From contig CAIZGX010000058.1 of assembly GCA_903932685.1 (NCBI GenBank), positions 634 through 64,633 of the forward strand: a stretch of DNA of 64,000 nt. Direction: 5' to 3'. Below the pieces are notes generated by a model, which was not told where the DNA came from, did not search any database, and saw only the letters and a list, made by a program, of their open reading frames with translations. Each line of letters opens with the position of its first letter. Within the stretch, counting starts at the first letter, position 1. A program made the translations under genes and the position numbers. The DNA comes from an uncultured Bacteroidota bacterium (GTDB lineage Bacteria; Bacteroidota; Bacteroidia; Flavobacteriales_D; Sanyastnellaceae). Below are positions 19,753 to 60,668 of this stretch, one piece after another.

Positions 19753-19825
19753 TATACGTCTTTTGACGAATAATGCATAACTCATTTGGAAGCTTCAGTG
19801 TGGTATGTATATATTTATTTATTGA

Positions 19826-20488
19826 ATGAAAAACACTTTTCTCTTTATGTCGCTGATGCTTTTTTCCACATTCGGATTTGCGCAGGACACCCTTCAAACA
19901 CCTTTGGAATTCGTTCAGGAAATGCCAACATACCCTGGAGGGCAAGATGCTATGTTTGAAGTGATCTTTGATCACTTAGTCTACCCAGAATATGAGAAAT
20001 CGATGAACATTGAGGGCACCGTTTTAATTCAATTTATTATTGAAAAAGATGGTACACCAACGAACTTCAAGGTTTTTCGTGGTGTTACGGATGGCTCGGG
20101 ATTGGACAGTGCGGCGCTTATGGCATGTAAACAACTGGGGAAGTTTAACCCGGGAAAACAGGACGATATTCCTCAACGAGTTTATTCTGGAATGCCAATA
20201 AAGTTTTCTTTGGCCGACGACGAAGAGCCAACGGAGGAAAGATTGAGTAAAGCAGATTTGAAAGAGATAAAAAAAGATGCGAAATACATCTGCGATATGA
20301 TGTCTCAAATAGAGGAAGCGCGAAGAGCCAACGACCAACTTAAAATTGATAGTTTAACTGCAGAGTTTGACGCAGTAGCAGCAGTCCTTCAAAAGAAATA
20401 CCCTAAAAACAGCGTTAGAGAAGATTATCTCGAAGACCTAGTTAAACCTTGCCTTGAAGAAGCCAGGAAAGCCGCAATGGGGCAGTAG
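19826..20488 (+). CDS. secreted TonB C-terminal domain protein with one C-terminal two-Cys helical module
   Basis: Signal peptide plus a TonB_C-like domain (PTYPGGQDAMFEVIFDHLVYPEYEKSMNIEGTVLIQFIIEKDGT). The C-terminal module is LKEIKKDAKYIC...KKYPKNS...LVKPCLEEA. Confidence 0.7.
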   Translation: MKNTFLFMSLMLFSTFGFAQDTLQTPLEFVQEMPTYPGGQDAMFEVIFDHLVYPEYEKSMNIEGTVLIQFIIEKDGTPTNFKVFRGVTDGSGLDSAALMACKQLGKFNPGKQDDIPQRVYSGMPIKFSLADDEEPTEERLSKADLKEIKKDAKYICDMMSQIEEARRANDQLKIDSLTAEFDAVAAVLQKKYPKNSVREDYLEDLVKPCLEEARKAAMGQ

Positions 20489-20509
20489 TTCTTTTCAAAA
20501 AAAAAACAT

Positions 20510-21457
20510 ATGATTAAAAGGACTTTTCTGTTTGTTGCTTTTGTAGCGATTCAAATGCTTTCCGCTGCGCAGGCCGACACCGCAATGTTTCCGCTTCCAA
20601 AGGATTATCCAAAATATCCAGCAGGAAAAGAAGCCTTGAATGCCTTCATTCAACAAAACATCGTCTACCCCGAATACGAAAAATCAATGGGCATTGAAGG
20701 GACGGTAGTTGTTTACTGCGATGTAGAATTAGATGGTACACTGAGTAATTTTAGAATAGGGTCAACAGTTGAAGGTTCGGTTGGGTTTGATGCCGAGGCC
20801 ATTCGTGTCTGTCAGAAATTAGGCAAGTTTACTCCGTGCATGCGAAACGGTAAGCCACTTTGCTTCATAATTGATATCGATGTGAAATTCGATTTGAATA
20901 ATGGAGACGAGATGGAAATGGCCATAGCGAAATTGAGCAATCAGGAGTTAAAGGAAATTGAGAAAGATGCAAAATGGTTTTGTGATTATTTAGCGAAAAC
21001 TACAGAGCCCCGAAGAGTTGGCGATGAAGATAAATTAGCGAAATTAACGAGCAAGTATCAGAAAGAATTAGATGTTTTAGAAGATAAATACCCAGGGAAA
21101 AGCCCGAAGAGCGTTCAATTTGAAAGATTGACCAAGCCCTGCATGGATGACATGTTCAAAAGAATGGGCATCGTGGATACCGACGGTGATGGTCTCTTTA
21201 CAAAAGAAGAAGCAGAATTGACTGCAAAGGAGCTTAAGCAAATAGAGAAAGATGCGAAGTATTTCTGCTCCTTGTTTAACGAAACAATAAGTGCGAAATT
21301 TAATGGCGATACGAAAAAAGTCGAAAGACTAAAAAAAGACTTAGAAATGAAGACCGCTGCGTTGCAAAAGAAATATCCAAAGGGTAGTAAAGCGGAAAAA
21401 AAGTTTGAAGACCTAGTCTTGCCCTGCCTCAAAGAGGCGATGAATCGCTCAAAATAA
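20510..21457 (+). CDS. secreted TonB C-terminal domain protein with two C-terminal two-Cys helical modules (paralog of the previous gene)
   Basis: Signal peptide plus a TonB_C-like domain (YPKYPAGKEALNAFIQQNIVYPEYEKSMGIEGTVVVYCDVELDGT). The module LKEIEKDAKWFC...KYPGKS...LTKPCMDD occurs twice. Confidence 0.7.
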   Translation: MIKRTFLFVAFVAIQMLSAAQADTAMFPLPKDYPKYPAGKEALNAFIQQNIVYPEYEKSMGIEGTVVVYCDVELDGTLSNFRIGSTVEGSVGFDAEAIRVCQKLGKFTPCMRNGKPLCFIIDIDVKFDLNNGDEMEMAIAKLSNQELKEIEKDAKWFCDYLAKTTEPRRVGDEDKLAKLTSKYQKELDVLEDKYPGKSPKSVQFERLTKPCMDDMFKRMGIVDTDGDGLFTKEEAELTAKELKQIEKDAKYFCSLFNETISAKFNGDTKKVERLKKDLEMKTAALQKKYPKGSKAEKKFEDLVLPCLKEAMNRSK

Positions 21458-21474: not shown

Positions 21475-21596
21475 TTCATCCTTCAAAGAAGGTCATCACG
21501 AAGTGTCATCACAATGTGTTGTGTCATCACGACCTGTCGTGTCATCGGCTACGCCGTCATCCAGCTTCGCTGGTAATCACAACTTGTTGTGTAGTT
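21475..21596 (+). repeat. mini-hairpin string, TCAT-linker (GTCATC core) family, array A
   Basis: Perfect GTCATC at 21492, 21505, 21523, 21541 and 21556. Degenerate copies are TTCATC (21475), GTAATC (21573) and GTAGTT (21591). All 7 intervening words are self-complementary. Confidence 0.85.
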
Positions 21597-41529: not shown

Positions 41530-42201
41530 ATGCGAATAGATATTCTTACCATTCTGCCTCGCTTGCTCGACGGGCCTTTTGCAGATTCAATCTTGAATCG
41601 CGCGCAGAAGAACGGCCTGTGTGAAATTCACATCCACAACATTCGTGATTACTCAACAGATAAGCACAAGAGTGTAGACGATTATCAGTTTGGCGGTGGA
41701 GCGGGCATGGTGATGCTTATTCAACCCATTGCAGATTGCATAGATAAGTTAAAGGCCGAGCGCGAATACGACGAGATTATTTATTTGACTCCGGATGGAG
41801 ATAGACTAAACCAAAGCATGTGCAACACCTTCTCGTTGGGAAAGAATTTGCTCATGATTTGCGGACATTACAAAGGCATTGATCAGCGTTTACGCGACCA
41901 CTATGTGACGCGCGAAATTTCAATTGGAGATTATGTATTGAGTGGAGGAGAATTAGCTGCTGCTGTTTTGGTAGATGCGATCGTGCGATTAATCCCTGGC
42001 GTGATGAACGATGAAACAAGTGCGTTGACCGATTCGTTTCAAGATAATTTATTGGCTCCTCCCGTATACACGAGACCTGCAGAGTATAACGGTTGGAAGG
42101 TTCCAGATGTTTTGACTTCAGGAAATTTCAAAGTCATTGAAGAGTGGCGCATGCAACAAGCTTTTGAAAAAACGAAAACGCGAAGACCCGACTTGCTATG
42201 A
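41530..42201 (+). CDS. trmD: tRNA (guanine37-N1)-methyltransferase
   Basis: [10 protein letters not shown]... and the SPOUT knot region [14 protein letters not shown]. Confidence 0.93.
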
Positions 42202-43463
42202 GCACGCCACTTGCGGAAAGAATGCGTCCGAAGACATTCGATGAATACGTTGGACAATCGCATTTGATTGGCAAGGGCGCTGTGTTGCGCAGTATTATTG
42301 AAAGCGGACATATACCAAGCATGATTTTCTGGGGCCCTCCGGGTGTTGGGAAAACAACGTTAGCAAATATCATTGCGCAAACACAACAACGTCCTTTCTT
42401 TTCGCTTTCTGCCATCAATAGCGGAGTGAAAGAAATTCGTGAAGTGTTAGATCAAGCCGGAAAGGGCGGACTGTTTCAGAAGAGTGCTATTTTATTCATC
42501 GACGAGATTCATCGCTTTTCAAAGAGCCAGCAAGATTCATTACTCGGTGCGGTTGAGAAGGGAGTTGTAACTCTTATTGGCGCGACAACAGAAAACCCTT
42601 CATTCGAAGTGAACGGCGCCTTGTTGTCGCGCTCGCAGGTATACACCCTGAATGCGCTCACCAAAGATGAACTCAATCAGTTATTGGAAGACGTCATTGT
42701 TCGCGATGAAGCGCTTCGCGCTAGGAATATTCAATTAGAGGAAACGCAATCCTTATTGAAATACAGCGGCGGCGATGCCCGCCGATTGCTAAATGTACTT
42801 GAGTTAGTTGTTGAATCCATTTCAGAGACGCCTTGCGTCATTAAAAACGAATCAGTAGAGAACGTCATTCAAACAAATGCTGCACGTTACGACAAGACCG
42901 GTGAAATGCATTACGATGTCATCTCAGCGTTTATTAAAAGCGTTCGCGGAAGTCATGCGCAAGCAGCAACATATTATCTAGCGCGCATGATTAAAGGCGG
43001 AGAAGACCCGCTATTTATAGCGCGAAGATTGGTCATATTGGCTTCAGAAGACATTGGATTAGCGAATCCGAATGCGCTATTGATTTCGGAAGCAACCTTT
43101 CGCGCTGTTCAAAATATAGGCTGGCCTGAAGCGCGCATTCCACTAAGTATGTGCACAGTGTATTTGGCAACCAGCGCGAAAAGCAATTCTGTCTATACCG
43201 CCATTGACGCCGCTTTGGCGTTGGTGGAACAAACGGGAGATTTGCCTGTGCCTATGCATCTTCGCAATGCTCCAACGAAATTAATGAAGGAGTTGGGATA
43301 CGGAAAGAACTACGAATACGCGCATGCGCACGAAGGGAATTTTGTTCGTCAAGAATTTCTTCCAGAAGAAATTGCATCGTCAGAATTCTACACGCCAGGA
43401 AACAATCCGAAGGAAGCGGCTATTCTAAAATGGCTTCAAGAACGTTGGGGAACGAATGAATAA
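42198..43463 (+). CDS. rarA: replication-associated recombination protein A (AAA+ ATPase)
   Basis: LAERMRP...[20 protein letters not shown] and a MgsA C-terminal domain. Confidence 0.9.
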
Positions 43464-44532
43464 TAACACGACACGAAACTTTGGACTCGATTTATTTCGA
43501 GCGTTGGCCATTGTGTTGGTTGTGTTGTCTCACGGAAAATTTTTGTTGAATGGAACGGTTCTAGAGAATTTTCCGTTCGTGAAAATGCTCGACGGCGTTG
43601 ATTTGTTTTTCGTGTTAAGCGGATTTTTAATTGGCGGAATTTTATTGAAGTCCTCTTCTGAAGGATTGAATTGGCGAGGCATTGCGCACTTTTGGAAGAG
43701 AAGATGGTTGCGCACTTTGCCGAATTATTATTTGATCTTGTTCTTGAATTTCATTTTCATTTCTTGTGGAATTATTTCCGGAGACTTAACTGTTTTCGGT
43801 TGGAAGTTTATTGTATTCCTTCAAAATTTCACAAAGCCGCTCATTGGATTTTTCTGGGAGTCGTGGAGCTTGGCAGTTGAGGAGTGGTTCTACATTTTTA
43901 CTCCAGTTATGCTTTGGGGACTACTGAAAGTGTTTCGATTGAAATGGGCTTATCTCATTGCAACGCTTGTAATGATTGCTGTTCCCTTGATCTATCGCGC
44001 TTATTCCTTTGATTCGAAGCTCGACGATTTCTGGTTCGATGTGCAGGTCCGAAAGATTGTGGTCTTTCGACTCGATGCTATTGCATTCGGATTGTTGCTC
44101 GCCTGGATTTGTTCTTTCCATAAAGATCTTTGGGACAAGTGGAAAAACGTAGGGCTTGTTTTGGGTTTGGCAATAGTTTTATTCTTGTTGAATAACAGCG
44201 CTTCCAACGCAACTTTTTATCGTCAAGTATTTTATTTCAGCATAACACCTTTCGCTATAGCACTTATCCTTCCTTGGTTTGAAGGGATTACTTCTTCATG
44301 GAAGCGCTTGGTAAGTGCCGTGACGCACATCAGTAAGATTTCGTATTCGATGTATTTAATTAACCTTGCGCTCGTTGCCCAAGTCATCGGATTGAATTTT
44401 CCTGTTCAAGGAAATGCAGATGGGATAATGAAGTACGTTGCCTATTGGTTTATTGTGATTACAGTCTCTTCGGCGCTTTACTACTTTGTGGAAAGACCGA
44501 TTCTTCGGTGGAGAGATGACGCTTCGCGATGA
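43456..44532 (+). CDS. acyltransferase family 3 membrane protein (OafA-like)
   Basis: N-terminal GLDLFRALAIVLVVLSH and about 10 TM helices. The last five codons and the stop lie inside hairpin array B. Confidence 0.75.
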   Translation: MNNNTTRNFGLDLFRALAIVLVVLSHGKFLLNGTVLENFPFVKMLDGVDLFFVLSGFLIGGILLKSSSEGLNWRGIAHFWKRRWLRTLPNYYLILFLNFIFISCGIISGDLTVFGWKFIVFLQNFTKPLIGFFWESWSLAVEEWFYIFTPVMLWGLLKVFRLKWAYLIATLVMIAVPLIYRAYSFDSKLDDFWFDVQVRKIVVFRLDAIAFGLLLAWICSFHKDLWDKWKNVGLVLGLAIVLFLLNNSASNATFYRQVFYFSITPFAIALILPWFEGITSSWKRLVSAVTHISKISYSMYLINLALVAQVIGLNFPVQGNADGIMKYVAYWFIVITVSSALYYFVERPILRWRDDASR

Positions 44533-44631
44533 CGCAACGCGTTGCGATGACACAACACGACGTGATGACAATCTGCGATTGATGACCACTTCGTGGATGA
44601 CGGCGAAGCCGATGACCGCGCAGCGGATTAA
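44515..44631 (-). repeat. mini-hairpin string, GTCATC family, array B (inverted orientation)
   Basis: GATGAC on the + strand at 44515, 44528, 44546, 44564, 44581, 44596 and 44611, with a degenerate GATTAA at 44626. Six of 7 words are self-complementary. Confidence 0.85.
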
Positions 44632-45647
44632 TGAATGTGGTTTGCGATGTTACGTGCGATGGAAGGACCTTCGTAGATGAAGCCCGTGTATACTTGAACA
44701 AGGGAAGCACCTGCATCTATTTTTTCTTGCGCATTTTGTGAAGTGTGAATTCCTCCAACGCCAATGATTGGAAATGCGCCGTTCGATTTTGAATGCAAAT
44801 AGCGAATCACATCGGTTGAACGCGCACGCACAGGAGCTCCGCTCAATCCGCCCATTCCAATGCTTTGAATGGTTTGTGTACTCGTTTGCAAATTCTCTCT
44901 TGAAATGGTTGTGTTCGTTGCAATGACTCCCGCAATTTTTGTTTGAAGAACAATTTCAACAATGTCATTCAATTGATCGTCTGTTAAATCCGGAGCAATT
45001 TTTAAAAAGATTGGACGCGGTTTTGGGAAGGTGTTATTTGTTTCAGCAAGAGCAGAAAGAATTTTCATTAATGGCTCTTTCTCTTGCAACTCGCGTAAAC
45101 CCGGTGTATTCGGAGAGCTTACATTCACCACGAAATAATCTACACAATCGTGAAGGGCATTCAAACAAATTAAATAATCACTCAACGCATCTTCATTCGG
45201 AGTGATTTTATTCTTTCCGATATTTCCTCCAACAATAATATTTGATTTTCGTTTTCTCAAGCGTACTGCAGCGTCTTCAACCCCACCGTTATTAAATCCC
45301 ATGCGATTAATCAACCCATTATCTAACGGAAGTCTGAATAATCGTGGTTTGTCATTTCCAGGTTGTGCCTTCGGAGTAAGCGTTCCGATTTCCACATGTC
45401 CGAATCCTAACAATGCCAACTCATCTATCCAACGCGCATCCTTATCAAACCCAGCAGCCAATCCCACCTTATTGGGAAATTCAATTCCTGCTACAACAAT
45501 CTTGTTTTCTTTCGCTTTGAAAATTGATTTTAAAATCATTTTTCCTCCAGGCATTCTTGAAGAAAATTTCAATAAATCCATGGCCAAGTAATGCGCCTTC
45601 TCCGGAGAAAAAAGAAAAAAGAAAGGTTTAATCAGAAGCTTATACAT
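44628..45647 (-). CDS. pyrD: dihydroorotate dehydrogenase (quinone), class 2
   Basis: [18 protein letters not shown] and GVGGI motifs. Start taken at [11 protein letters not shown] (45647). Confidence 0.9.
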
Positions 45648-45661
45648 GCTGCAAAAATACA

Positions 45662-45892
45662 GCATCTCATCCATCAATCGTAGATTGTCATCACCTTCGG
45701 TGTCATCCGCTCCGCGGTCATCGGCTTCGCCGTCATCAATCGCAGATTGTCATCACCTTCGGTGTCATCCGCTCCGCGGTCATCGGCTTCGCCGTCATCA
45801 ATCGCAGATTGTCATCACCTTCGGTGTCATCGCAACGCGTTGCGTCATCGCGAAGCGTCATCCGCTCCGCGGTCATCCACGAAGTGGTAATG
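45662..45892 (+). repeat. mini-hairpin string, GTCATC family, array C (largest, with a 62-bp higher-order repeat)
   Basis: 13 perfect GTCATC cores between 45687 and 45877. The 14 intervening or flanking words are all self-complementary. Blocks 45687-45748 and 45749-45810 are identical. Confidence 0.9.
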
Positions 45893-45995
45893 GTGAATAA
45901 CTCTGTTGATATGTGTGAATTTCACTTTCGTCGCAAGGCTTCGTATGCCGTTTATTTTTGATAAAATCGAAAGGTTAACAAAATAGTAAAGGCAT

Positions 45996-46547
45996 ATGAT
46001 TACATTTTTTGGAAAAAAGAAAATCTCAGCAGAACGCGCAGCAACGCTGTTCGTGAATACACTGTTGGATTCAGTGGAAGGTGGTTTTTCGGAAGTTGCT
46101 GGATTTATCCGCGATACGCCTGAGCTAGTTAGTACTCCGAAAATTAGTGATGAGGAATACGGTAAATTCTTAATGATTGCCATTGTAGGAAACTTCAATT
46201 ACTTAAATGAGCATTTCCGCGATGGTGAAGGCGATTTAATTGTTCAGCATTGTATAGATCAGTTCGCACCTGTTTTCGATTTGTCTCCAATTGCCTTCCA
46301 AGCCAAATTGAACGACTACAAGAAGTTCATGGCTCATGTTAATTTCCCTTCGAAGAATATTTTGTACAGCATGTCTAAGGCTGTATTCTTCAAATATGAA
46401 TTGAATCAATACCAAGACGAGTATTTCAGAAGCATGAATACGCCGAATCCAATTTTCTTGAAGAGCTTGGATGAAGTGATGCGTAATTTCATTTGGGACT
46501 GGGAAGCATTCTGCGACAAATACAAGGTTCAGTTAGGCGGAGCCTAA
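45996..46547 (+). CDS. hypothetical cytoplasmic protein (183 aa)
   Basis: ORF only, apparently helical, with no signal peptide or motif recognised. It is bracketed by arrays C and D. Confidence 0.5.
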   Translation: MITFFGKKKISAERAATLFVNTLLDSVEGGFSEVAGFIRDTPELVSTPKISDEEYGKFLMIAIVGNFNYLNEHFRDGEGDLIVQHCIDQFAPVFDLSPIAFQAKLNDYKKFMAHVNFPSKNILYSMSKAVFFKYELNQYQDEYFRSMNTPNPIFLKSLDEVMRNFIWDWEAFCDKYKVQLGGA

Positions 46548-46656
46548 CACGCGTGGCGATGACAATCTTCGATTGATGACGGCAAGGCCGATGACACAAC
46601 ACGTTGTGATGACACTTTCAGTGATGACCTCTTCGCGTATGACACTTCGTGATTAA
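46548..46656 (-). repeat. mini-hairpin string, GTCATC family, array D (inverted orientation)
   Basis: Opens with the palindrome CACGCGTG (46548-46555). GATGAC at 46558, 46575, 46590, 46608 and 46623, then TATGAC (46638) and GATTAA (46651). Confidence 0.8.
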
Positions 46657-48147
46657 TTAATTTTGAATGAAGTATTCTAAGACGGTATCTTTTCCAGATT
46701 TCAAATCTTCTAAACTTTGTTCCAAAGGAATGTTTGGAAGTATGGGCGTTCGCGAATAACTGAACGTGTTTTTATAGTTGTATCGAATGGTCGGAACCGA
46801 ATAGGAAATTCCAGATTCTGAAAGTTGAACGGTGGTGGCGTTACCCCAGGTGCCGTTGGTAGTGGCGTTGCAAGGAGTTCCAATAAGTATTGCTCGATGA
46901 TTGCTTTGAAGCAATTGCGCGAAATCGCAAGCCGCAGAGACTGTATTTCCATTCATAAAAACGGCCATCTTTCCTGTGTAGACATGTTCTTTGCGCTGAC
47001 GCTGAGGGATACTGAAAAATGCGGTGTCTGATTCTTCCAAGGGCGTTTGACTCAACAAGTAGTATTGGTACATATCTTCACTCCGCTTGAATCGTTTCTC
47101 TGTGAATTCTGGGAAATGTTTCATTCTGAAATTTGAAACAATCTGATACGAATAGTCACTCGCTTTCCAGATAATATTACTCGGTGTGTTCAGTCCGGAT
47201 GGAGTTAAAAAGGAGCAGAGGTATTCAACCATTGAACTAGATCCGCCGGGGTTGTCACGAACGTCAATAGCAATATGAAGGATACCTAACTCTCTCGCCG
47301 CTTGAAAGAACTTTCTGATTTTCTTGACGTCGTTTTGAAAAGGTCGTGAAGAAAAGGAGCGAACGGTTAAAACAGCTTTGTCTTCATTCAAATAAAAAGT
47401 AGCTTCAATGTTTTTTTTATTTGGTTTGAAATGTTCGCGTCTAATTTTTTGAAGTTGCTTTATATCTACCAATTGCACTTCAACGCTGTCTATTTTATTG
47501 TCAACGCGGAAAACAATAGTCTCAACATCCCAATCGTTTTGCAAAGGATTTGCAAAAAAATGTGCTGGCGTGTAATAATAGGCTGCGGCTTCGTCGCTGG
47601 CATTCATAGCATTTCCCTCGTCGACGCTCCATTCTTTCGCAAGCTTGTGCAATTCAGTCATGGAAAGTTTTCCAACAGAAAGTATTTCACTTCCAAAAGG
47701 AGGACCACCAATTTGAGTTTCTTCAACATAAAATTTTCCGTCAATGGGTTGAATGAACAAAGGCAAAAAGCCAGAGTCGTATCCACATGATTCGAACAAC
47801 AGGCGATACACGTGTGTCTGCAAATGCGAGTCTTCAACAACACGAATAAATCGATTTAAATTTTGAGCATGTTGAATCATTGTTCTGTCTTCAGAATAAT
47901 AGTTAAAAGCTTTTTTGTACGCTTCGCCAAATGCCTCCTTGCCGCAATAGGCATATGGATCTGGATGAACAGTAAGAAGTTTTTCTTCAAGCTCAATCAG
48001 ATCGTCAATTAAATGGTCAGCGCAAATGCGTTCAATACTTCGTTCGCAGCGATAATACGCTTTTGAATTCGGATCGAAGCACGTGTCGGATTGAGCAGAT
48101 ACTTGAATAGCTGCCAAAGTAAAAAGTAACAAAAGAAGTATACGCAC
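46657..48147 (-). CDS. peptidase S41 family protein
   Basis: 496 aa with a GTG start and a signal peptide. Carries the S41-type motif IDVRDNPGGS. Confidence 0.65.
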   Translation of the reverse strand: MRILLLLLFTLAAIQVSAQSDTCFDPNSKAYYRCERSIERICADHLIDDLIELEEKLLTVHPDPYAYCGKEAFGEAYKKAFNYYSEDRTMIQHAQNLNRFIRVVEDSHLQTHVYRLLFESCGYDSGFLPLFIQPIDGKFYVEETQIGGPPFGSEILSVGKLSMTELHKLAKEWSVDEGNAMNASDEAAAYYYTPAHFFANPLQNDWDVETIVFRVDNKIDSVEVQLVDIKQLQKIRREHFKPNKKNIEATFYLNEDKAVLTVRSFSSRPFQNDVKKIRKFFQAARELGILHIAIDVRDNPGGSSSMVEYLCSFLTPSGLNTPSNIIWKASDYSYQIVSNFRMKHFPEFTEKRFKRSEDMYQYYLLSQTPLEESDTAFFSIPQRQRKEHVYTGKMAVFMNGNTVSAACDFAQLLQSNHRAILIGTPCNATTNGTWGNATTVQLSESGISYSVPTIRYNYKNTFSYSRTPILPNIPLEQSLEDLKSGKDTVLEYFIQN

Positions 48148-50193
48148 TTATTCGTCGTTGCGTTTTTTAACCATGGTTAAGATCGTCGCTAACGCCACAG
48201 TCTCTCCAGTTTCGTCGTAAACGTCAACCAAGAACTTCACAATTCCTTTTGGAATATCGTCTTCGCTTCGTTTCTCTTGCGCAATTTTTTCCTTCACGGT
48301 AAAGCGAACGGCAATGGTCATTCCCGGATATACGGGTTTTGTAAAGCGCGCTTCGTCTATTCCATAATTCAACAAGACTGGACCTTTCTTCGGGTCAACG
48401 AACAATCCTGCAGCTTTCGATAAAACGAAATATCCGTGAGCCACGCGGCGCTCGAAGATGGTTCCTTCCAAAGAGGTAGCGTCCATGTGCGCGTAGAAAT
48501 TATCTCCACTCACATTCGCGAAGTTCACAATGTCGGCTTCAGATACAGTGTGCTTGTGTGTGAAGACAGTGTCTCCAACAACAAGGTCTTCGAAATGCTG
48601 ACGGAACAAGTGGGGTTGTGCTTCGGCTTGTTCGCCGCCTTGCTGATAAACACCAGTAATGGCAGTCAACATAGTTGGCGATCCTTGAATAGCCGTGCGT
48701 TGCAAGTAATGCATAACACCGCGCTTTCCACCCATCTCTTCTCCACCTCCGGCACGACCCGGTCCGCCGTGAACAAGCATAGGCATTGGGCTTCCGTGAC
48801 CGGTGCTTTCTTTCGCGCTAGCTCTGTTCAATACTAAAATTCTTCCGTGATGCGTTGCTGCATTCAAAACGAAATCGCGAGCAATGGCTGTGTCGTTCGT
48901 GGTAATGCTACACACCAAACTTCCTTTTCCTAATTTCGAAATAGCAACAGCCTCTTCAGTTGTTGAATAAGGCATAAGGGTAGCGATAGGGCCGAAGGCT
49001 TCCACGCTGTGCGAGCTTAATCTTTCGAAAGGTTTGTCGTTGAGCAATAGCGTTGGCGACATGAAGGCTCCCTTCGTGCCATCCGCTTCAATAAGATTTA
49101 TGGTATCGTTTCCGAATACAACTTCACTTTCTTTTTTCAATTCGTTCAAGGCAGCAACAACGTCTTCGCGCTGAGCCATTCCAGCTAAAGATCCCATGCG
49201 AACTTTTTCGTTGCGCGGATCTCCAATAGAGGTTTGTCCAAGTGCTTTCACAAGCGCTTCTTGAACGTCTGACAAGTATTTTTCAGGAACTAAAATTCTT
49301 CTTACTGCGGTACATTTTTGTCCGCACTTCACTGTAATTTCTTTGCGAACTTCCTTCACGAATAAATCGAATTCTTCGGTGCCAGGCGCTGCGTCGAGTC
49401 CGAGTATAGCGGCGTTCAGCGAGTCGGCTTCCATGGTGAAGGGTATGGATTGGTCTACCAATCGGGGATGTGACTTCAACATTTTTCCGGTTGAAGCAGA
49501 GCCGGTGAAGGTTACCACGTCTTGCATTTCCAAATGATCGAAAATACCGTTGGCACTTCCGCAAATCAATTGCAAGGCGCCTTCCGGAAGAATTCCTGAA
49601 GCGTGAATATCGCGAACAACCACTTCTGTTACATACGAGGTCAATGTTGCAGGCTTCACCACAGCAGGAACACCCGCTAATAGGTTCACCGCAATCTTTT
49701 CCAACATTCCCCATACCGGGAAATTGAATGCGTTAATATGAAGCGCAACACCTTCCTTCGGAACCATAATGTGGTGACCAATGAAGGTTCCTTCTTTCGA
49801 AAGTTTGGCCAATTCTCCGTCAACATAAAACGAAGAATTTGGGAACTGCTTACGCAAAGAGGCGTAAGCAAAGAGGTTTCCGATTCCACCGTCAATGTCA
49901 ATCCAAGAGTCAATCTTAGTAGCCCCCGTCTTCACGCTCACAGCGTAATACGCGGCTTTGCGCTCGGTTAAATAGAGGGCCAATGCCTTCAACATTCTAC
50001 CGCGTTCTTGGAAGGTCATCTTGCGAAGTGCTGGACCGCCTGTCTCGCGACCGTAGTTCAGCATAGCGCCGAAATCCAATCCGGAACTGTCAGCTACCGC
50101 TACCAATTCTCCATTTACTGCATCGAAAAGTTCGGTTCCTTTTCCGCTGCCGGAAATCCATTGCCCAAGGGCGAAATTTTGAAGTTGTTGCAT
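48148..50193 (-). CDS. paaZ: bifunctional aldehyde dehydrogenase / MaoC-type hydratase (PaaZ-like)
   Basis: 681 aa with an N-terminal ALDH domain (catalytic Cys context CGQKCTAVRR) and a C-terminal hot-dog MaoC domain. This is the same architecture and length class as PaaZ. Confidence 0.75.
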   Translation of the reverse strand: MQQLQNFALGQWISGSGKGTELFDAVNGELVAVADSSGLDFGAMLNYGRETGGPALRKMTFQERGRMLKALALYLTERKAAYYAVSVKTGATKIDSWIDIDGGIGNLFAYASLRKQFPNSSFYVDGELAKLSKEGTFIGHHIMVPKEGVALHINAFNFPVWGMLEKIAVNLLAGVPAVVKPATLTSYVTEVVVRDIHASGILPEGALQLICGSANGIFDHLEMQDVVTFTGSASTGKMLKSHPRLVDQSIPFTMEADSLNAAILGLDAAPGTEEFDLFVKEVRKEITVKCGQKCTAVRRILVPEKYLSDVQEALVKALGQTSIGDPRNEKVRMGSLAGMAQREDVVAALNELKKESEVVFGNDTINLIEADGTKGAFMSPTLLLNDKPFERLSSHSVEAFGPIATLMPYSTTEEAVAISKLGKGSLVCSITTNDTAIARDFVLNAATHHGRILVLNRASAKESTGHGSPMPMLVHGGPGRAGGGEEMGGKRGVMHYLQRTAIQGSPTMLTAITGVYQQGGEQAEAQPHLFRQHFEDLVVGDTVFTHKHTVSEADIVNFANVSGDNFYAHMDATSLEGTIFERRVAHGYFVLSKAAGLFVDPKKGPVLLNYGIDEARFTKPVYPGMTIAVRFTVKEKIAQEKRSEDDIPKGIVKFLVDVYDETGETVALATILTMVKKRNDE

Positions 50194-50263
50194 CTGATTT
50201 TTCTCTTGTTGCGAAGTTAATCGGAAAGTGCCGCACTTGGAATGATTGATGTATTTTTACAAC

Positions 50264-51313
50264 ATGAATAAGGTTACGCATTTAATTACCGGCGGTTGTG
50301 GTTTTGTGGGAAGAAACATGGTGAAGAGACTCTTCAACACCACCGAGGCGCAGTTGATTTTCATCGATGATTTATCGGTTGGAACACACCCCGACACTTG
50401 GCTCAATGCCACGAAAACGAACTACGGCGAAGGCTTCACAGTTTACAACGGAAGATTGCTATTCATTCATGCCGATGCGTTGAAGGTGATGCGCGCGTTT
50501 TCAGAAGACGAGAAATACTTTGGAAAGAATTTTCAGTTTGAAATAGATCGCATCAACGATGTCTTCCATTTCGCAGCTATTGTAGGTGGAAGAACGAAGA
50601 TAGACGGAGATCCGATGGCCGTTGCATTAGACCTTGCTATTGATGCGGAAATGTTTTACTGGGCCTGCAGATACAAGCCGGAAAGGCTCATGTATCCAAG
50701 CTCTTCAGCCGCTTATCCAATCGATCTTCAGACAATAGACGGAGCTATAGCATTGAAAGAGTCTGACATTGATTTCAAGCGAATGGGCGAACCCGATATG
50801 ACTTACGGATGGAGCAAACTAACAGGTGAGTTCCTTGCGAAAATTGCAGCCTCACATTACGGTTTGAAGGTGACGTGCATTCGTCCGTTTAGCGGATACG
50901 GTGAAGATCAAGATTTGACTTATCCCGTTCCCGCTATTGCAGCCCGCGCAGCGAAGAAAGAAGATCCATTTGAAGTTTGGGGAAGTGGTAATCAAGGCAG
51001 AGACTTCGTTCACATCGACGATGTAATCGACTGCATCTTGTTGGCCATGGATCACATTCACGACGGAACAGCCATTAATATTGGAATGGGAAAACTCACT
51101 TCCTTCAATGAAATTATTCGCGTGTTCTGTGGATATGCAGGATACGAGCCTACCATCAAGCCTTTGTTGGACAAGCCGGTGGGCGTGCATTCGCGCTATT
51201 GCGACATGACCTACGTTCAAGAGAAGTTGGGATGGACAGCAAAGATTTCCATTGAAGAAGGAATGAAGCGCGTGTACGATGCGGCCGTGAAAAAATTAGC
51301 AGCGCAGCAGTAG
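50264..51313 (+). CDS. NAD-dependent epimerase/dehydratase (SDR family)
   Basis: Rossmann motif ITGGCGFVGRN and YGWSK (YxxxK). Confidence 0.8.
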   Translation: MNKVTHLITGGCGFVGRNMVKRLFNTTEAQLIFIDDLSVGTHPDTWLNATKTNYGEGFTVYNGRLLFIHADALKVMRAFSEDEKYFGKNFQFEIDRINDVFHFAAIVGGRTKIDGDPMAVALDLAIDAEMFYWACRYKPERLMYPSSSAAYPIDLQTIDGAIALKESDIDFKRMGEPDMTYGWSKLTGEFLAKIAASHYGLKVTCIRPFSGYGEDQDLTYPVPAIAARAAKKEDPFEVWGSGNQGRDFVHIDDVIDCILLAMDHIHDGTAINIGMGKLTSFNEIIRVFCGYAGYEPTIKPLLDKPVGVHSRYCDMTYVQEKLGWTAKISIEEGMKRVYDAAVKKLAAQQ

Positions 51314-52588
51314 ATGAAGAATAGAACAATTGTTTGCTTCGGTCCAGGTCCGCGCTTCAAAGGCGGAATGCAGAACTACAACACTTCGTTGGCGTTGGCA
51401 TTGGACAAGGAAGAGCGAAACAATGTTCACATTGTTAGTTGGACGCAGCAGTATCCGGCTATCATTCCCAGAGAATTCGTAGACAAAAGCAGCACAACAG
51501 ATTTGTTGGAAGGAAGTCGCGTGAAAGTGACTTACTTGACGAATTACAACAATCCGTTTAGTTGGATTGAAACAGCCAATTACATTATTTCACTGAAACC
51601 AGAAATGGTCACCATTCAGTGGAGCATAGCCCTACAAGGATTACCCATGGCTTTCATTGCAAAGCGCTTGCGCAAGGCGGGGATTCATGTGGTGTTCGAT
51701 ATTCACTTTGTAATTCAAAAGGAGCACAGCTCATTAGATAAGTTTTTGACGAAGTATGCCTTAAAACACGCCTCATCTTTTGTGGTTCACGCTTTGCATA
51801 CGTTTGAAGAATTGAAAACAGTTTTCCCCGAACGTTCGTTCGGTTTGGTAGATCAGTTGGATATTCATGAAAAGGCATTCACATCGGTTGTGAAGTTATA
51901 TCATCCGATTTACGACTTGTACAAGCCCATTCCGAATTTCAATGTTGAAGAAGAAAAAGCGAAGTTGGGCTTGAAGAAACACGTCTTTTTGTATTTCGGA
52001 TTCATTCGGAAGTACAAAGGGCTAGACTTGGCCATTCAAGCATTTGCTGAATTGTGTAAGGAAAGGGACGATGTTTCGTTTTTGATTTGCGGAGAGTCTT
52101 TTTGGAAGACACTCGATGATTCGAAGTGGAGCACGAAGGTGAAACAAATGCTATTCGGTTGGGCGAAGAAGATTGTGCTGCGCAAATCAGACGACGAGCG
52201 TGAAGACAATCCGTTGGAATGGATAGAAAAAATGAGTATTCAAGAAAACTGCGTGGTGTTCAATCGATTCATTTCGAACGAAGAATTGCCCAAGTTTTTT
52301 CAAGTGTCCGATGCGGCAGTGTTGTTCTACAGAACGGCAACACCCAGCGGAATTGAGTCGTTGAGTTATAATTTCAAGATGCCTATTTTGGCGACTAAAG
52401 TTGGACATTTTCCGGAAACAATAGTAGACGGATTCAACGGCTATTTAGCCGAAGCAGAAGATATTCAAAGCATGAAAAATCAGATGCTTCGCATTTTAGA
52501 ATCTCCTGTAGACAGAGAGAATGTTGCGAAGGCAACAGAGAACATGAGTTGGACCAATTACGCAAAAGCCATTTGCAATTATGAGTAA
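51314..52588 (+). CDS. glycosyltransferase, GT4 (GT-B) family
   Basis: 424 aa with a C-terminal GT1/GT4 pattern (PSGIESLSYNFKMPILATKVGHFPETIVDGFNGYL). Confidence 0.75.
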   Translation: MKNRTIVCFGPGPRFKGGMQNYNTSLALALDKEERNNVHIVSWTQQYPAIIPREFVDKSSTTDLLEGSRVKVTYLTNYNNPFSWIETANYIISLKPEMVTIQWSIALQGLPMAFIAKRLRKAGIHVVFDIHFVIQKEHSSLDKFLTKYALKHASSFVVHALHTFEELKTVFPERSFGLVDQLDIHEKAFTSVVKLYHPIYDLYKPIPNFNVEEEKAKLGLKKHVFLYFGFIRKYKGLDLAIQAFAELCKERDDVSFLICGESFWKTLDDSKWSTKVKQMLFGWAKKIVLRKSDDEREDNPLEWIEKMSIQENCVVFNRFISNEELPKFFQVSDAAVLFYRTATPSGIESLSYNFKMPILATKVGHFPETIVDGFNGYLAEAEDIQSMKNQMLRILESPVDRENVAKATENMSWTNYAKAICNYE

Positions 52589-54802: not shown

Positions 54803-55636
54803 TTGAAAATTCGATTAACACTATGGGTTTGTCTATTATCAATGTCTGCGGATGCCCAGTATTTCGTTGATATTTTTTCGTTCAATAGACAGGCTTACAA
54901 CATCCCTTCAGGCGCCCAAACGAGTGACCTTTTTGTCAATGCGTTTATTCCAAAGGTTCTGAAAAACGGCAACACCGTTTTTGTTCGTGCACATTATGAA
55001 AAGCTTTCGATGCAAAGAGATTCATTGTCTGCCGATTATTCTTCGATCACACTTCCTATTGGCATGCAAGTTCAATTGAAGAATCCGAAATGGAAATTCA
55101 CAGGCTTGATTATTCCGAAAATAGCCGGTGCGGATTTGAGCGCGGCGTTTTCAGATGTTTTTCAAATTGGAGCGTATTCATTATTCACGGTAACAGAGTC
55201 TGAAAAATTTCGATACAAATTCGGATTGTATTACAATCGAGAATTCTTCGGGAATTTCTTTGTGCCGCTCGTTGGAGTTGATTGGAAGGTGTCTGATCGT
55301 TTTTCCGTATTCGGCACACTGCCTCAGAGCTTTAAGGCTTCCTATGCGATATTTCCTTCTCGCGTGAATGCAGGATTGGCCTTTCGCTCCATGACAAGAT
55401 CATTTCGTGGTGAAGACAACAACACTTTTGTTCGTTACAATGAATTGCAATTCAAAGCGTTTTTCGATTTTTATGTAACTCCAAAGAATGTAGTCTTTGT
55501 CGAAGGCGGATATTTCCTCGGGAAAACACCGCTACTTTATAACAATACCGACACCAAGAATCCTGTTAATTCTAATTTATTGAAGGAAGGGATAGCATTC
55601 CCTTTGATTAATGCTGGATGGGCGTTAAGATTCTAA
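54803..55636 (+). CDS. putative outer-membrane beta-barrel protein
   Basis: TTG start gives the signal peptide MKIRLTLWVCLLSMSADAQ. Alternating amphipathic strands, with a C-terminal aromatic residue (ALRF). Confidence 0.5.
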   Translation: MKIRLTLWVCLLSMSADAQYFVDIFSFNRQAYNIPSGAQTSDLFVNAFIPKVLKNGNTVFVRAHYEKLSMQRDSLSADYSSITLPIGMQVQLKNPKWKFTGLIIPKIAGADLSAAFSDVFQIGAYSLFTVTESEKFRYKFGLYYNREFFGNFFVPLVGVDWKVSDRFSVFGTLPQSFKASYAIFPSRVNAGLAFRSMTRSFRGEDNNTFVRYNELQFKAFFDFYVTPKNVVFVEGGYFLGKTPLLYNNTDTKNPVNSNLLKEGIAFPLINAGWALRF

Positions 55637-57921
55637 AAAAGTTCGGTTAAAATTCGAAGGGTTTCTTTCGACGCGTCTTTCGGATGCAACGCTGTGTCTG
55701 AAATACCCGAGATTACCCGTGTAACATCGTGGTCTATTTTTCCTTCAACAAACCAATCGGAACCTTTCGCAACTGTAATGTAAACCGAATAGTTGTGGTG
55801 CATGGTTCCAGGGCGTTCACCAATGATATGTAAGACACATTTTTTATTTGTTGAAATGGAATCGCCAAAGAGCTGTTCGCCGCAGCGGTAGCCCGCACGA
55901 ACTCTTCCATGTTGAATGAATAAATTGTTTTTGCTCAACGTGTATTTGTCCTTCAATAATACATTCAGTTCTTTAACATAAGGTTCCAAATGTCCTTGGT
56001 CAAGAATAGAAGAAACATTCAATCCGTCAGAAACTACAACCTGAATATCGGGAGTTTTATTCTTCCATTTCGATTTTAAAATTTCCAAAGCGTAGATGCT
56101 ATCGCGTGAAAGTTGTTCGCCCGATTGCGGATGGTAGATGTAATCTTTTCGGTTTGAAGAAAGAGTGGCCAGCGCTATTCCTTCAGTAAGTGATTTCTTA
56201 AAATTCGGAGGTGTTTCTTCCCAAAGACATTTCTTAGCATCTGCATAAAGTAGGCGAATTTCTTGCTCAAGGTCAGGATTCATTTCCCAATAATCCTTTC
56301 CGAATCCTTTCGCAATTGGAACACCTCGTTCTCGAACTCGTTCAATGCATGCAAGACCTTCCGAATAAATTTCGTCCATTGGCTGCGTATCACCTTTCAA
56401 TTTTCGATATTGGTAATACATCCAAACAGGATCTCCAAAGTGATTTGAAGGTTTGTTGTTTTCATCAATAATTTCCATCTGCTTGAAAAACGCCCACATG
56501 GCATCATTGATCTTGTATCCAAACTTTTCGCGAATGCGCAGGTGATCGCTAAACGATGTGGTTAAGTAACTCAACATAGGATCGTTCTTCGTTGGAAGAG
56601 CCATGAGATAACCCGGATTGGCTGGCATGATTTGATCAATGCACCAGTCTAAATCATCGAGTGAAACATCCATGTGCAGCGTGGTGCAAATGTCCAAGCC
56701 AATCATGAGTCCGTGTAATTTCCCCATCACTAAATCTTCCAAGCAACAACGAACCAATTGTTCTTTCGTTCTGAAAACTTCCGGACCAATGAATCCAGCA
56801 ACATCATTCAAATGCACCCAAGACTCTTCGTTGAGTTGTTGTTTTAATCCGCGCCACAGGCCGTATTTACGCGACTCGTGAATAAGCATGTCGAAGCCTT
56901 CTCCGTGCCCGTTCGTTTCATCAGCACCTTGTCCGGTTTCAGCATAGAGTCCGAATTTACCTTTGCGCTGTGAGGCGTATTTCTTAAGTTTTTCAATGGT
57001 TACATCGAAGGTCTGATTTGCTTTCACAGTGCCGGCAATACTCTGAAACCACATGCCGGTTTGACCGTTGTAAGTCTTTTCTACTTCAGCTTGAATATCG
57101 ATGTGCGCCAACACAGAATGTGAAAGCGTATTTTCTAGTTTGAAGGTGGTAAGCAAATCGTATAAAGCCATTTCAATTTTCGCAACCGATTCCGGATTGC
57201 TTGAAACAGGATTGTTACCTAGAACCAAATCACCAACACTGTAGCTCCACGCGTCGAACACCTGCCAAACAATGTCTTCAATGTTATCGGTGGGAGAGTT
57301 GGGTTGAACGCGAGCGCTCATGTATCCCTTCGAACCCATTTGAGTTCCGGGAAGCGGATGGAAAATTTTGCTGCTAATTGCGATGAGCTCTTGGTTCGAC
57401 ATGAGCTTCACAACACAAGCAATGATGTCGCTTGTTAAGTAGGGAAGTAGGTCATGAATCTCAGTTTCAGAGGACTTCAAGAGAAGTTCTTTAAAATCGT
57501 TCATGCGAAGTTTACCAATGGCTTTTCCAGATTCTGTTTCTTGAAAAGCGCGTGTAGATTGTTCAATGAATTCCGATTGTTCATCGGTGAAAACAGAATG
57601 TTTGCGAATGTTGTCAAGGCTGGTTTCAGCAAGAAGCATGCGTGCCTTCAACCGATCTTCATCGCTTGCGGCAGCTATTCCAGCAATTTCATCGCCTTCT
57701 TTGAATTCATTGGCAGCGCCAAGTAATTGTCGATACAGGGTAACGTCGAAACTTCCTTTTTGACGTTGAATGTATTGAAACAAATCTTCACCAACGAGGG
57801 GAGAAGGGACTTCAATTTTTTCGAAATGAAAATGATCAGACTCCCCGATAACTTTCCCTGAAACAAGTGTGTACGAGACTGTCGCCATTCCTAGTTTGCT
57901 TAAAAAATCGCGACGCTCCAT
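55633..57921 (-). CDS. eutBC: fused ethanolamine ammonia-lyase large and small subunits (EutB-EutC) with a twin-arginine-like N-terminal extension
   Basis: Residues ~45-500 align by eye to EutB (EGDEIAGIAAASDEDR, LYAETGQG, AGFIGPE, MGKLHGLMIGLD). Residues ~520-762 align to EutC (VVVSDGLN, HIIGERPG). The N-terminus is MERRDFLSKLG. Confidence 0.85.
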   Translation of the reverse strand: MERRDFLSKLGMATVSYTLVSGKVIGESDHFHFEKIEVPSPLVGEDLFQYIQRQKGSFDVTLYRQLLGAANEFKEGDEIAGIAAASDEDRLKARMLLAETSLDNIRKHSVFTDEQSEFIEQSTRAFQETESGKAIGKLRMNDFKELLLKSSETEIHDLLPYLTSDIIACVVKLMSNQELIAISSKIFHPLPGTQMGSKGYMSARVQPNSPTDNIEDIVWQVFDAWSYSVGDLVLGNNPVSSNPESVAKIEMALYDLLTTFKLENTLSHSVLAHIDIQAEVEKTYNGQTGMWFQSIAGTVKANQTFDVTIEKLKKYASQRKGKFGLYAETGQGADETNGHGEGFDMLIHESRKYGLWRGLKQQLNEESWVHLNDVAGFIGPEVFRTKEQLVRCCLEDLVMGKLHGLMIGLDICTTLHMDVSLDDLDWCIDQIMPANPGYLMALPTKNDPMLSYLTTSFSDHLRIREKFGYKINDAMWAFFKQMEIIDENNKPSNHFGDPVWMYYQYRKLKGDTQPMDEIYSEGLACIERVRERGVPIAKGFGKDYWEMNPDLEQEIRLLYADAKKCLWEETPPNFKKSLTEGIALATLSSNRKDYIYHPQSGEQLSRDSIYALEILKSKWKNKTPDIQVVVSDGLNVSSILDQGHLEPYVKELNVLLKDKYTLSKNNLFIQHGRVRAGYRCGEQLFGDSISTNKKCVLHIIGERPGTMHHNYSVYITVAKGSDWFVEGKIDHDVTRVISGISDTALHPKDASKETLRILTELF

Positions 57922-58048: not shown

Positions 58049-58196
58049 CTCATCACAACGTGTGGTGTCATCCGCTCCGCGGTCATCGGCTTCGCCGTCA
58101 TCAATCTCCGATTGTCATCACCTTCGGTGTCATCGGCTTTGCCGTCATCCACGAAGTGGTCATCAATCTCCGATTGTCATCCGCTCCGCGGTATTG
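58049..58196 (+). repeat. mini-hairpin string, GTCATC family, array E
   Basis: Perfect GTCATC at 58067, 58082, 58097, 58114, 58129, 58144, 58159 and 58176. Degenerate copies are CTCATC (58049) and GTATTG (58191). Eight of 9 words are self-complementary. Confidence 0.85.
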
Positions 58197-58210
58197 TGTA
58201 TTTTTGATCC

Positions 58211-60430: not shown

Positions 60431-60507
60431 GGCATTGTAGCTCAACTGGATAGAGCATCGCACTACGGATGCGAAGGTTTGGGGTTCGAATCCCTACAGT
60501 GTCACCA
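60431..60507 (+). tRNA. tRNA-Arg (anticodon ACG)
   Basis: Hand-folded cloverleaf. Acceptor GGCATTG/CAGTGTC, D arm GCTC/GAGC, anticodon stem TCGCA/TGCGA with loop CTACGGA, T arm TGGGG-TTCGAAT-CCCTA, and an encoded CCA. 77 nt. Confidence 0.9.
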
Positions 60508-60557: not shown

Positions 60558-60668
60558 GTCTCATTCTCATTCTGTTTCTCTAACTCATTCAGATTCTCTT
60601 TCCCATTCTGTTTCTCATACTCATTCAGATTCTCTTTCCCATTCTGTTTCTCATACTCATTCTGAATT
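60558..60668. repeat. 36-bp tandem repeat (2 full copies plus partial copies on both sides)
   Basis: ACTCATTCAGATTCTCTTTCCCATTCTGTTTCTCAT at 60583-60618 is repeated exactly at 60619-60654. There are partial copies at 60558-60582 and 60655-60668. Confidence 0.85.

Follow-up and report, generated by a model that had tools for sequence, protein, structure and literature searches.

The 64,000-nucleotide stretch of uncultured Bacteroidota DNA analysed here in its full length (contig CAIZGX010000058.1; hereafter the window) carries a gene for an acyltransferase of the OafA/YrhL type (PF01757; 43456-44532, plus strand) that converges on pyrD (DHO_dh; 44628-45647, minus strand; 339 aa from MYKLL). 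The gap between the two genes is filled by a repeat array, array B (44515-44631, plus strand), in which seven GATGAC hexamers, here called cores, and a closing degenerate GATTAA core (44626-44631) separate seven short words. The cores start at 44515, 44528, 44546, 44564, 44581, 44596 and 44611, and the words are GCTTCGC, GCAACGCGTTGC, ACAACACGACGT (imperfect) and AATCTGCGATT, followed by CACTTCGTG, GGCGAAGCC and CGCGCAGCG. With a G at the start and a C at the end of the core, the stem of each word gains one C-G pair, and a unit effectively comprises a C-stem-loop-stem-G hairpin and an ATGA linker of 4 nt. Both stop codons lie inside the array, the TGA of the acyltransferase gene at 44530-44532 and the pyrD stop within GATTAA (complement of 44628-44630). 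The reverse complements of five array B words recur in a second array, C, where the adjacency GCAACGCGTTGC-GCGAAGC is kept, and the two arrays share one hairpin vocabulary in opposite orientation. The cores, the words, the sharing with array C and the enclosed stops had been described by an earlier reading made from the letters alone (the sequence-only reading): a position scan returned the seven cores and the GATTAA end, the list of seven words proved exact, and the sharing with array C, the filled gap and the enclosed stops were likewise confirmed.

The hexamer is strongly over-represented. GATGAC/GTCATC occurs at 50 sites on the two strands of the window, compared with 29.4 +/- 5.1 in shuffled sequence (none of 100 shuffles reached 50), and 38 of the 50 sites fall into five clusters with a spacing of 13-18 nt. 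By core positions these clusters are A (21492-21561), B (44515-44616), C (45687-45877), D (46558-46628) and E (58067-58181). Seven cores within 102 nt, as in array B, have a probability of ~1e-15 by a Poisson estimate from the background rate. The periods of array B (13, 15, 17 and 18 nt) are irregular and out of phase with every reading frame, which excludes a coding repeat. An assembly artefact is excluded as well, since array B is base-for-base the same in three independent assemblies of related strains (L127, L128 and L129; related loci and assemblies are cited by such numbers).

Comparison with these relatives provided evidence for how array B came about. The gene pyrD is co-oriented with the acyltransferase gene in L121/L123 (acyltransferase 91% identical), L124/L125 (87%) and L252, and is inverted in the window, L127-L129, L254, L255 and L070; the inverted form was found in at least five independent assemblies with an identical acyltransferase. 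The sister order is acyltransferase gene, GATGAC-oriented array, pyrD, short GTCATC-oriented array, a conserved leader and a gene termed orf183. The upstream array of the sisters has 7-12 words and stops just before the pyrD -7 box (TATTTTTG) and ATG, and the downstream array of L121 reads TTAATC CGCTCCGCG > GGCTCCGCC > CACGATGTG GTAATG (arrowheads stand for the intervening cores). In the window, the head of array B (44515-44580) corresponds in order and orientation to words 1-4 of the L121 upstream array. Its tail (44581-44631), CACTTCGTG < GGCGAAGCC < CGCGCAGCG GATTAA followed by the pyrD stop, matches in inverted form the short array that the sisters carry after the pyrD stop, and it came to this place together with pyrD. 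Array C is made up of the pyrD promoter, the complete upstream array in inverted form and finally CGCTCCGCG > CACGAAGTG GTAATG from the downstream array's tail, and the pyrD -7 box (complement of 45652-45659) has moved along with the inverted gene. As judged from this word order, array B is a chimeric recombinant joint between an upstream-array head and an inverted downstream array, and the convergent layout of the acyltransferase gene and pyrD is to be read as a secondary product of the inversion.

A candidate crossover site is present. A perfect inverted repeat of 39 nt (100% complementary), with its left arm at 44515-44553 and its right arm at 45824-45862 inside array C, brackets pyrD and includes the word adjacency shared by B and C; the left arm covers the last codons and the stop of the acyltransferase gene. 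On paper, a single crossover in this repeat turns an L252-like layout into that of the window, and it would leave intact both the -7 box that belongs to pyrD and the final codons of the acyltransferase gene. With the exception of L254, which has lost its left array, every lineage has pyrD flanked by inverted repeats (21-61 nt, 85-100% complementary). The closest relative of the window for rarA, pyrD, aldh and an epimerase gene (four of seven genes; 91-93% nucleotide identity) is L252, which is uninverted, whereas identity to L254 and L255, both inverted, is lower at the same four genes (88-89%). Either at least two changes of orientation or an exchange of alleles must therefore have occurred, and since the gene trees are incongruent, the two are not fully separable. 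Recombination between the two arrays flanking pyrD inverted the gene, apparently on more than one occasion in the clade. Across 42198-52588 the nearest relative among L121, L124, L252, L254 and L255 varies by gene (L252 for pyrD, L255 for orf183), which indicates frequent homologous recombination among co-occurring freshwater lineages.

The same observations bear on whether the pyrD segment might be a programmed invertible switch, worked by a site-specific recombinase acting at arrays B and C. Inverted repeats do flank pyrD in nearly all lineages, and its orientation does not track the gene tree. However, all assemblies of a lineage show a single orientation, which speaks for flipping on an evolutionary scale and not for a fast switch; the sequences of the inverted repeats vary by lineage, and no recombinase gene lies nearby. 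As the -7 box moves with pyrD and the acyltransferase end is kept, no change in expression is predicted from the flip either. We regard such a switch as highly improbable.

The arrays have also left their mark on coding ends. The acyltransferase ends in RWRDDASR, and its last four codons (D-A-S-R) and the TGA come from unit 1 and core 2 of array B. Distant homologues (50-56% identity) end in ...LRDR, ...LRDKK or ...NWRDRR, whereas those of the close clade end in RWRD followed by D/N/R/S, A/S and an optional SR, a tail encoded by GATGAC-GCTTCGC-GATGAC or decayed forms of it. In L254 the array is gone, yet the tail persists as DRASR-TAG; that it has outlived the array implies that the native end was replaced in the ancestor of the clade and now evolves as coding sequence. 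The question raised by the sequence-only reading, namely whether the C-terminus is native or was replaced, is thus answered by the ortholog ends in favour of a repeat-derived DASR tail. Array B overlaps both stops because arrays grow up to, and slightly into, reading frames. Other degenerate array ends that supply or overlap a stop are TTAATC after pyrD and GTAGTTA at the GH20 gene described below, and at array D (46548-46656) a GATTAA abuts TTA, the complement of the stop of a peptidase gene. Next to array D, the last three codons of orf183 (46536-46547; GGC GGA GCC, then TAA) equal the vocabulary word GGCGGAGCC and abut the array; in relatives this end reads GGCGCAGTC, GGAACAGTG or GGGACGGTG. 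Palindromes resembling those of the arrays may thus originate at the ends of coding sequences or spread into them.

At the other ends of genes the arrays approach promoters. A -7 box of the Bacteroidetes type (TAnnTTTG; in both cases TATTTTTG) precedes the ATG of pyrD, and that of a gene for an Smr-domain protein, by 4 nt, implying near-leaderless transcripts, and at both genes the arrays finish 2-16 nt upstream of it. The idea that the arrays supply a -33 promoter element was dropped, as the spacings were inconsistent. Upstream of orf183, for which no Pfam match was found, a leader outside the arrays (45893-45995) is ~95% identical between relatives where four-fold sites are only ~60% identical. 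A small GGC...GCC hairpin, with GTTTATTTTTG after it, lies within this leader, whose conserved role may be that of a promoter, a terminator or an RNA element. Intergenic conservation alone is accordingly not specific to the arrays.

The composition of the words was analyzed over 27 arrays from the window and related loci, comprising 144 words, 62 of them distinct; orthologous arrays are not independent and counts over all words overcount shared ancestry, while the analysis of distinct words gives the same picture. A detector that makes no assumption about the core recovered the arrays as chains of C-stem-loop-stem-G hairpins with a 4-nt TCAT linker (ATGA on the other strand). Perfect Watson-Crick palindromes account for 94% of the 144 words, in sizes of 7, 9, 11, 12 and 13 nt, and no word starts with T. 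The triloop is GNA or TNC in 95 of 114 cases (83%, compared with 12.5% expected), and the pair closing the loop is C-G in 104 of 135 (77%). Relative to core orientation, GNA and TNC are about equally frequent (52 and 43). Among the 28 distinct 9-nt words, 97.3% of cells are paired, against 73.7% in shuffled and 24-52% in slid controls; 26 double-sided changes were counted and not a single one-sided change of the G-U type. Their covariation score of 0.586, compared with 0.137, was reached by none of 500 shuffles.

The words also match a well-known DNA structure. Those of the d(GCGNAGC) type include GCGAAGC (in B and C), GGCGAAGCC, CGCGCAGCG, CGCGGAGCG and CGCGAAGCG, as well as CCGAAGG within ACCGAAGGT, and they carry the full sequence motif, that is, a GNA triloop, C-G closure and a short G/C stem. 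DNA mini-hairpins of this kind melt at 70-76 C, and among the loops only GNA works (PMC13037366). Nearest-neighbour folding as DNA gave -2.3 to -4.5 kcal/mol per unit, with models that underestimate these hairpins (PMC13037366). One and the same stem can carry complementary loops (GAA/TTC, GGA/TCC, AAA/TTT), a pattern that loop flips in DNA hairpins would produce. Our comparisons thus show conservation of the spacer and of a predicted capacity of either DNA strand to form a mini-hairpin, and not of the sequence of a word or of its orientation relative to genes.

These features bear directly on the role that the sequence-only reading had proposed for array B, that of a bidirectional 3'-end or RNA-stabilizing element comparable to the repetitive extragenic palindromes (REPs) of enterobacteria. 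Such an RNA-level element, whether 3'-end, exonuclease barrier or terminator, would be in keeping with an array that occupies a whole convergent gap. It would also agree with the lack of a hairpin-plus-T-run terminator there, a point on which the earlier reading held up: the scan for terminator sites (a G+C-rich stem of >=5 bp plus a T/U run) returned none in 44533-44627 or in arrays C-E, and array B has no T run. Three of the five GTCATC arrays of the window sit in convergent gaps, and folded as RNA the pyrD-sense (minus) strand of B is more stable than its shuffles (z = -2.46). The acyltransferase-sense strand, however, is no better than shuffles (z = -0.94), and single units fold as RNA at only -2.2 to -4.8 kcal/mol; folded as DNA, array B gives z = -2.5. 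Selection on RNA would tolerate G-U pairs, which are almost absent, so that the strict Watson-Crick symmetry indicates a DNA palindrome, and GNA and TNC loops are equally common on both strands.

The gene layout is no better an argument for a function in RNA, since convergence follows from the inversion of pyrD. In L121, L124 and L252 the corresponding arrays lie between co-oriented genes, one of them directly upstream of the pyrD -7 box, and overall tandem gaps account for 15 arrays and convergent and divergent gaps for 7 each, with either orientation represented. Array E occupies a divergent gap upstream of a -7 box, where transcription is unnecessary; the sister L121 does without array D at the corresponding convergent junction; and elsewhere in the window convergent genes either overlap or are separated by 12-61 nt without structure. 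The genome moreover has a canonical intrinsic terminator after rplT (19611-19636; AGCCCTC-TTCG-GAGGGCT plus T8), conserved in all ten related assemblies, which indicates that the lineage uses ordinary terminators. A scan with sigma-70 and terminator consensus sequences gave counts no higher than in shuffled sequence, with a consensus that does not cover Bacteroidetes promoters. The proposed RNA role is therefore not supported and we consider it unlikely; we infer that the arrays have no dedicated transcript-terminating function, although a generic 3' hairpin or exonuclease-barrier effect on read-through transcripts is possible.

Taken as DNA elements, the arrays are a recurrent component of the intergenic sequence. 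The window holds five GTCATC arrays and a sixth with a different linker (KAAT); together they take up 6 of 42 intergenic gaps and ~16% of the 5 kb of intergenic DNA, and apart from a few terminal codons they are wholly extragenic. Array C (45666-45892, plus strand) has 13 GTCATC cores, with degenerate ends CTCATC/CATC on the left and GTAATG on the right. Tandem Repeats Finder (TRF) reported in it a 62-nt block of four words, present in 2.6 copies with 98% matches, and elsewhere in the arrays only fragmentary periods of 13-18 nt with 66-86% matches. Among strains with an identical acyltransferase, L128 is without one copy of this block and L127 has other words in its place. Array D (46548-46656, plus strand, GATGAC orientation) separates the convergent orf183 and S41 peptidase genes. 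It is absent in L121/L123, where the two genes overlap; L124 and L255 carry a two-word version, and the window and L254 one of six to seven words. The words that were added are non-identical and drawn from the common vocabulary.

Array E (58049-58196, plus strand, GTCATC orientation) lies in the divergent gap between eutBC and the Smr-domain gene, and its end directly precedes the -7 box TATTTTTG (58199-58206) of the latter, the ATG being at 58211. Orthologues exist in L255 and L321; the first four words are kept between the window and L255, and the others are reshuffled, also in L321. The neighbouring gene (55633-57921, minus strand) is one 762-aa open reading frame (ORF) with EutB and EutC domains, apparently a fused ethanolamine ammonia-lyase. 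Array A (21475-21596, plus strand, GTCATC orientation) sits between convergent TonB_C and GH20 genes and was found in 9 of 10 other assemblies checked (the anchor was not found in L331 and L333). Across assemblies its terminal word and the end overlapping the stop are conserved, and its remaining words are variable.

The sixth array (19645-19771, plus strand), of a second type, begins just after the canonical rplT terminator. It consists of G-stem-loop-stem-C hairpins joined by TAAT/GAAT linkers of 4 nt, its words include GTCTGCGAC, GTGCAAGCAC, GCCGATGGC, GTCTACGAC, GCCGTTGGC and GTCTTTCAGAC, and one block is present about twice, with a different number of units in L339 and L340. In other strains GTCATC-type arrays occupy the same site. 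The gap after the terminator is a hot spot with three alternative contents, namely KAAT arrays of varied length, head-to-head GATGAC/GTCATC arrays, or a minimal remnant of two cores. In the head-to-head arrays a three-word block occurs in 1, 2, 3 and 4 copies in L333, L335, L334 and L338, respectively. Between rplT and the GH20 hexosaminidase gene (19826-21457), L331-L340 carry 0-4 genes, mostly with a TonB_C domain, next to an identical L20 protein. This variable region is bounded on both sides by hairpin arrays; in L336 it is empty and the arrays are fused.

Differences between orthologous words are of three kinds. Some concern the loop type (CGCGGAGCG, CGCGGTGCG, CGCGCAGCG), others are fully compensated changes of the stem (ATTCTTCGAAT compared with AATCTTCGATT; CGC..GCG, GGC..GCC, ACC..GGT), and some words are replaced wholesale, the boundaries of insertions and deletions always lying at cores. 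By these comparisons the units are shown to act as cassettes, subject to duplication, deletion and exchange at core boundaries.

The family seems to be confined to a narrow group of freshwater bacteria. A scan of species-representative genomes for four spaced GTCATC cores found 7 true hairpin arrays among the 120 loci listed, the rest being mostly coding Asp-Asp repeats in unrelated phyla. All seven come from metagenome-assembled genomes of freshwater Flavobacteriales/Crocinitomicaceae with 41.5-44% G+C and use the common vocabulary; the taxonomic range given by these scans is a lower bound. Among 80 metagenomic loci with relatives of a window glycosyltransferase, arrays were present only at >=93% protein identity, and the core-agnostic detector found no arrays, with any linker, in >70 Flavobacteriales loci at <=68% protein identity. 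In a viral collection, a first, broader scan gave no hairpin arrays among the matches listed, and a complete, more specific one gave none in 97 stretches. The window itself is near, but not identical to, GCA_947491445.1. Searches of the literature on hairpin arrays and on repeats of Crocinitomicaceae found no description of a GTCATC element, and the alternation of a constant 4-6-nt linker with many perfect mini-palindromes would seem to be an architecture for which no description was found.

Together, our analyses suggest that the arrays are a new, DNA-level family of extragenic repeats that promotes recombination and is probably selfish in nature. As for how they evolve, the proposal that we consider the most likely, at about even odds, is that they are lineage-specific DNA repeats, kept mainly as selfish or structural DNA, which change by slippage, ectopic conversion and crossover at mini-hairpins and cores. 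Very stable single-strand mini-hairpins between direct-repeat cores would favour replication slippage and hence the duplication and deletion of blocks. Shared cores and words would allow ectopic conversion and crossover, leading to concerted evolution, shuffling, inversions and deletions. Arrays in opposite orientation serve as inverted repeats, by which pyrD was flipped, and some additional process would have to seed new loci.

Several points weigh against this proposal. Slippage and conversion alone leave unexplained the seeding of new sites such as that of array D, the occurrence of the same vocabulary in several species, the perfect foot, the existence of two linker families and the restriction to one clade. 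In the window, vocabulary words and single units turned up outside arrays solely as chance hits within genes, and a regular-expression search for HUH/Y1 transposase motifs, covering ~250 kb of window and related sequence, gave no ORF with both HUH and Y motifs. The stability of the minus strand of array B as RNA, reported above, points the same way. Finally, the cores are 100% conserved and array sites persist although flanking four-fold sites are only 58-69% identical, a persistence that could mean selection for function and not concerted evolution.

One such function would be that of double-stranded binding platforms for a lineage-specific protein reading GTCATC. This might be a nucleoid-associated protein, a regulator or part of a boundary or insulator element. 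A hexamer perfectly conserved across lineages with saturated synonymous sites would suit this, as would the arrays that abut the -7 boxes at pyrD and the Smr gene. The spacing of the cores is irregular, though, at 13-18 bp and outside helical phase; perfect palindromes with GNA/TNC loops are left unexplained; and arrays come and go between close relatives with unchanged neighbouring genes. We find this explanation very doubtful.

For the propagation step only, the recombination proposal competes with the idea that the arrays are the cognate repeats of an HUH enzyme acting on single-stranded DNA, in the manner of a REPtron. A nuclease of the RAYT (REP-associated tyrosine transposase) or TnpA(Y1) type would recognise the C...G-footed mini-hairpin and the TCAT foot, and hairpin-plus-linker units would be cut out and pasted beside existing TCAT sites to build arrays of one orientation, with a second enzyme for KAAT. 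An invariant foot of 4-6 nt combined with a hairpin conserved only in structure is the recognition logic of IS200/IS605 TnpA and of RAYTs. The idea would explain the uniform orientation within arrays, the differing words of neighbours and the vocabulary common to loci and species. The seeding of new sites, the specific foot, the two coexisting linker families and the narrow clade likewise fit recognition by a single-strand-DNA enzyme. The nearest precedent is RAYT subclass 2.6, which is largely specific to Bacteroidetes and has atypical repeats, mostly triloop hairpins without GTAG; Fluviicola (Crocinitomicaceae) encodes a member (PMC6006769). On the other hand, no HUH-plus-Y ORF was found in the ~250 kb searched and no solo units in the window, and the tabulated Fluviicola repeats are conventional GTAG or 22-28-nt hairpins and not GTCATC arrays (PMC6006769). 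Units of 13-18 nt are also far below any known mobilised element in size, and both orientations occur within 1.3 kb with no obvious replication-strand bias. We therefore hold this idea only tentatively, as the chief competitor of the recombination proposal. A stronger form of it is slightly less likely still: that the 13-18-nt hairpin-plus-linker units are the smallest DNA cassettes mobilised or copied in trans, by an enzyme specific for single strands, and at the same time serve as host recombination sites. The enzyme, of the Bacteroidetes HUH/RAYT type or another, would read the 4-nt foot and the GNA mini-hairpin fold, and the arrays, as built-in sites, would flip pyrD and swap the cassettes of the TonB_C region next to rplT.

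Elsewhere in the window, a tandem repeat at 60559-60664 (period 36 or 18, ~2.9 copies, 94% matches), unrelated to the hairpin arrays, lies in a 551-nt gap downstream of tRNA-Arg (60431-60507). Rfam at the gathering threshold gave only tRNA for the window, and ARAGORN only this tRNA-Arg.

If borne out, the arrays would represent a distinct architecture of extragenic repeats, a short constant spacer alternating with many perfect mini-palindromes, and would make the textbook d(GCGNAGC) mini-hairpin a natural building block used genome-wide; if the units were mobilised in trans, the family would be categorically new. Repeats with units of <20 nt would then drive gene inversion, changes in gene content and the capture of C-termini in an abundant uncultured freshwater lineage. 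The arrays offer a natural system in which to study whether hairpins of this kind form in vivo and how they affect replication, recombination and single-strand-DNA enzymes. They are also likely points of breakage and mis-joining in metagenome assemblies of the clade, and their variation in unit number could mark strains in lake time series.

Among known systems, an intrinsic terminator and a CRISPR (clustered regularly interspaced short palindromic repeats) array were rejected as the identity of the arrays, and a plain tandem repeat probably does not account for them. The alternation of a constant repeat with variable spacers and the addition of units recall CRISPR, but the repeat has 6 nt instead of 23-50, loci and species draw on the same 7-13-nt palindromes as spacers, and the arrays are small, many per genome and without a leader, among housekeeping neighbours, with no cas gene among the annotated genes of the window. 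A variable-number tandem repeat would be made of head-to-tail copies of one unit at high identity; the copy number of blocks does vary between strains, and copies of high identity were reported by TRF for the 62-nt block of array C. The SDR (short dispersed repeat), STRR (short tandemly repeated repetitive) and TAACTGA repeats of cyanobacteria and others (PMC4679880) are likewise tiny, lineage-specific intergenic arrays, some of them in Bacteroidetes. They are, however, direct repeats of a single unit or elements of 21-27 nt, none of which alternates a constant spacer with variable palindromes; the TAACTGA repeats, being plain direct heptamers, were rejected as the identity of the arrays. Elhai et al. 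reportedly proposed in 2008 that SDRs are mobile in spite of a length of <30 nt. Natural examples of d(GCGNAGC)/d(GCGAAGC), the hairpins of Hirao and co-workers, are single hairpins at single-strand origins of phages and plasmids and in phage N4 promoters (PMC13037366); sequence and the GNA/C-G rule match, whereas genome-wide tandem arrays are not among the known examples and folding of the present arrays into the nuclease- and heat-resistant hairpin is putative.

The closest likeness is to REPs, to the bacterial interspersed mosaic elements (BIMEs) that they form and to REPINs. Like these, the arrays are extragenic, hairpin-forming, clustered, lineage-specific and abundant in intergenic DNA; they vary in copy number between strains, act as substrates of rearrangement and combine a short foot with a hairpin conserved in structure over sequence. 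REPs are imperfect palindromes of 20-40 nt that fall into one or a few families and have GT[AG]G at the foot, and in BIMEs the orientation of successive units alternates (PMC6006769, PMC3116915). The GTCATC words, by contrast, have 7-13 nt, are perfect palindromes in 94% of cases and number 62 distinct forms among 144; the foot is (G)TCAT(C) or KAAT; the cores of one array share an orientation, with pairing head to head only between whole arrays; and the motif scan of the window and related loci (~250 kb) found no RAYT gene. The repeats of RAYT subclass 2.6 (group 5 of Bertels) are atypical, weakly structured, without GTAG and mostly triloop hairpins, the published examples being hairpins that flank the RAYT gene singly and measure 13-32 nt, or 122 nt in one case (PMC6006769). 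They resemble the arrays in phylum, in the lack of GTAG and in their triloops, but tandem arrays with a constant linker, and GTCATC itself, are absent from the table of PMC6006769. In its genomic behaviour the family described here is thus like REPs, BIMEs and REPINs, and it differs from them in the features by which they are defined, namely unit size, GTAG foot and alternating orientation.

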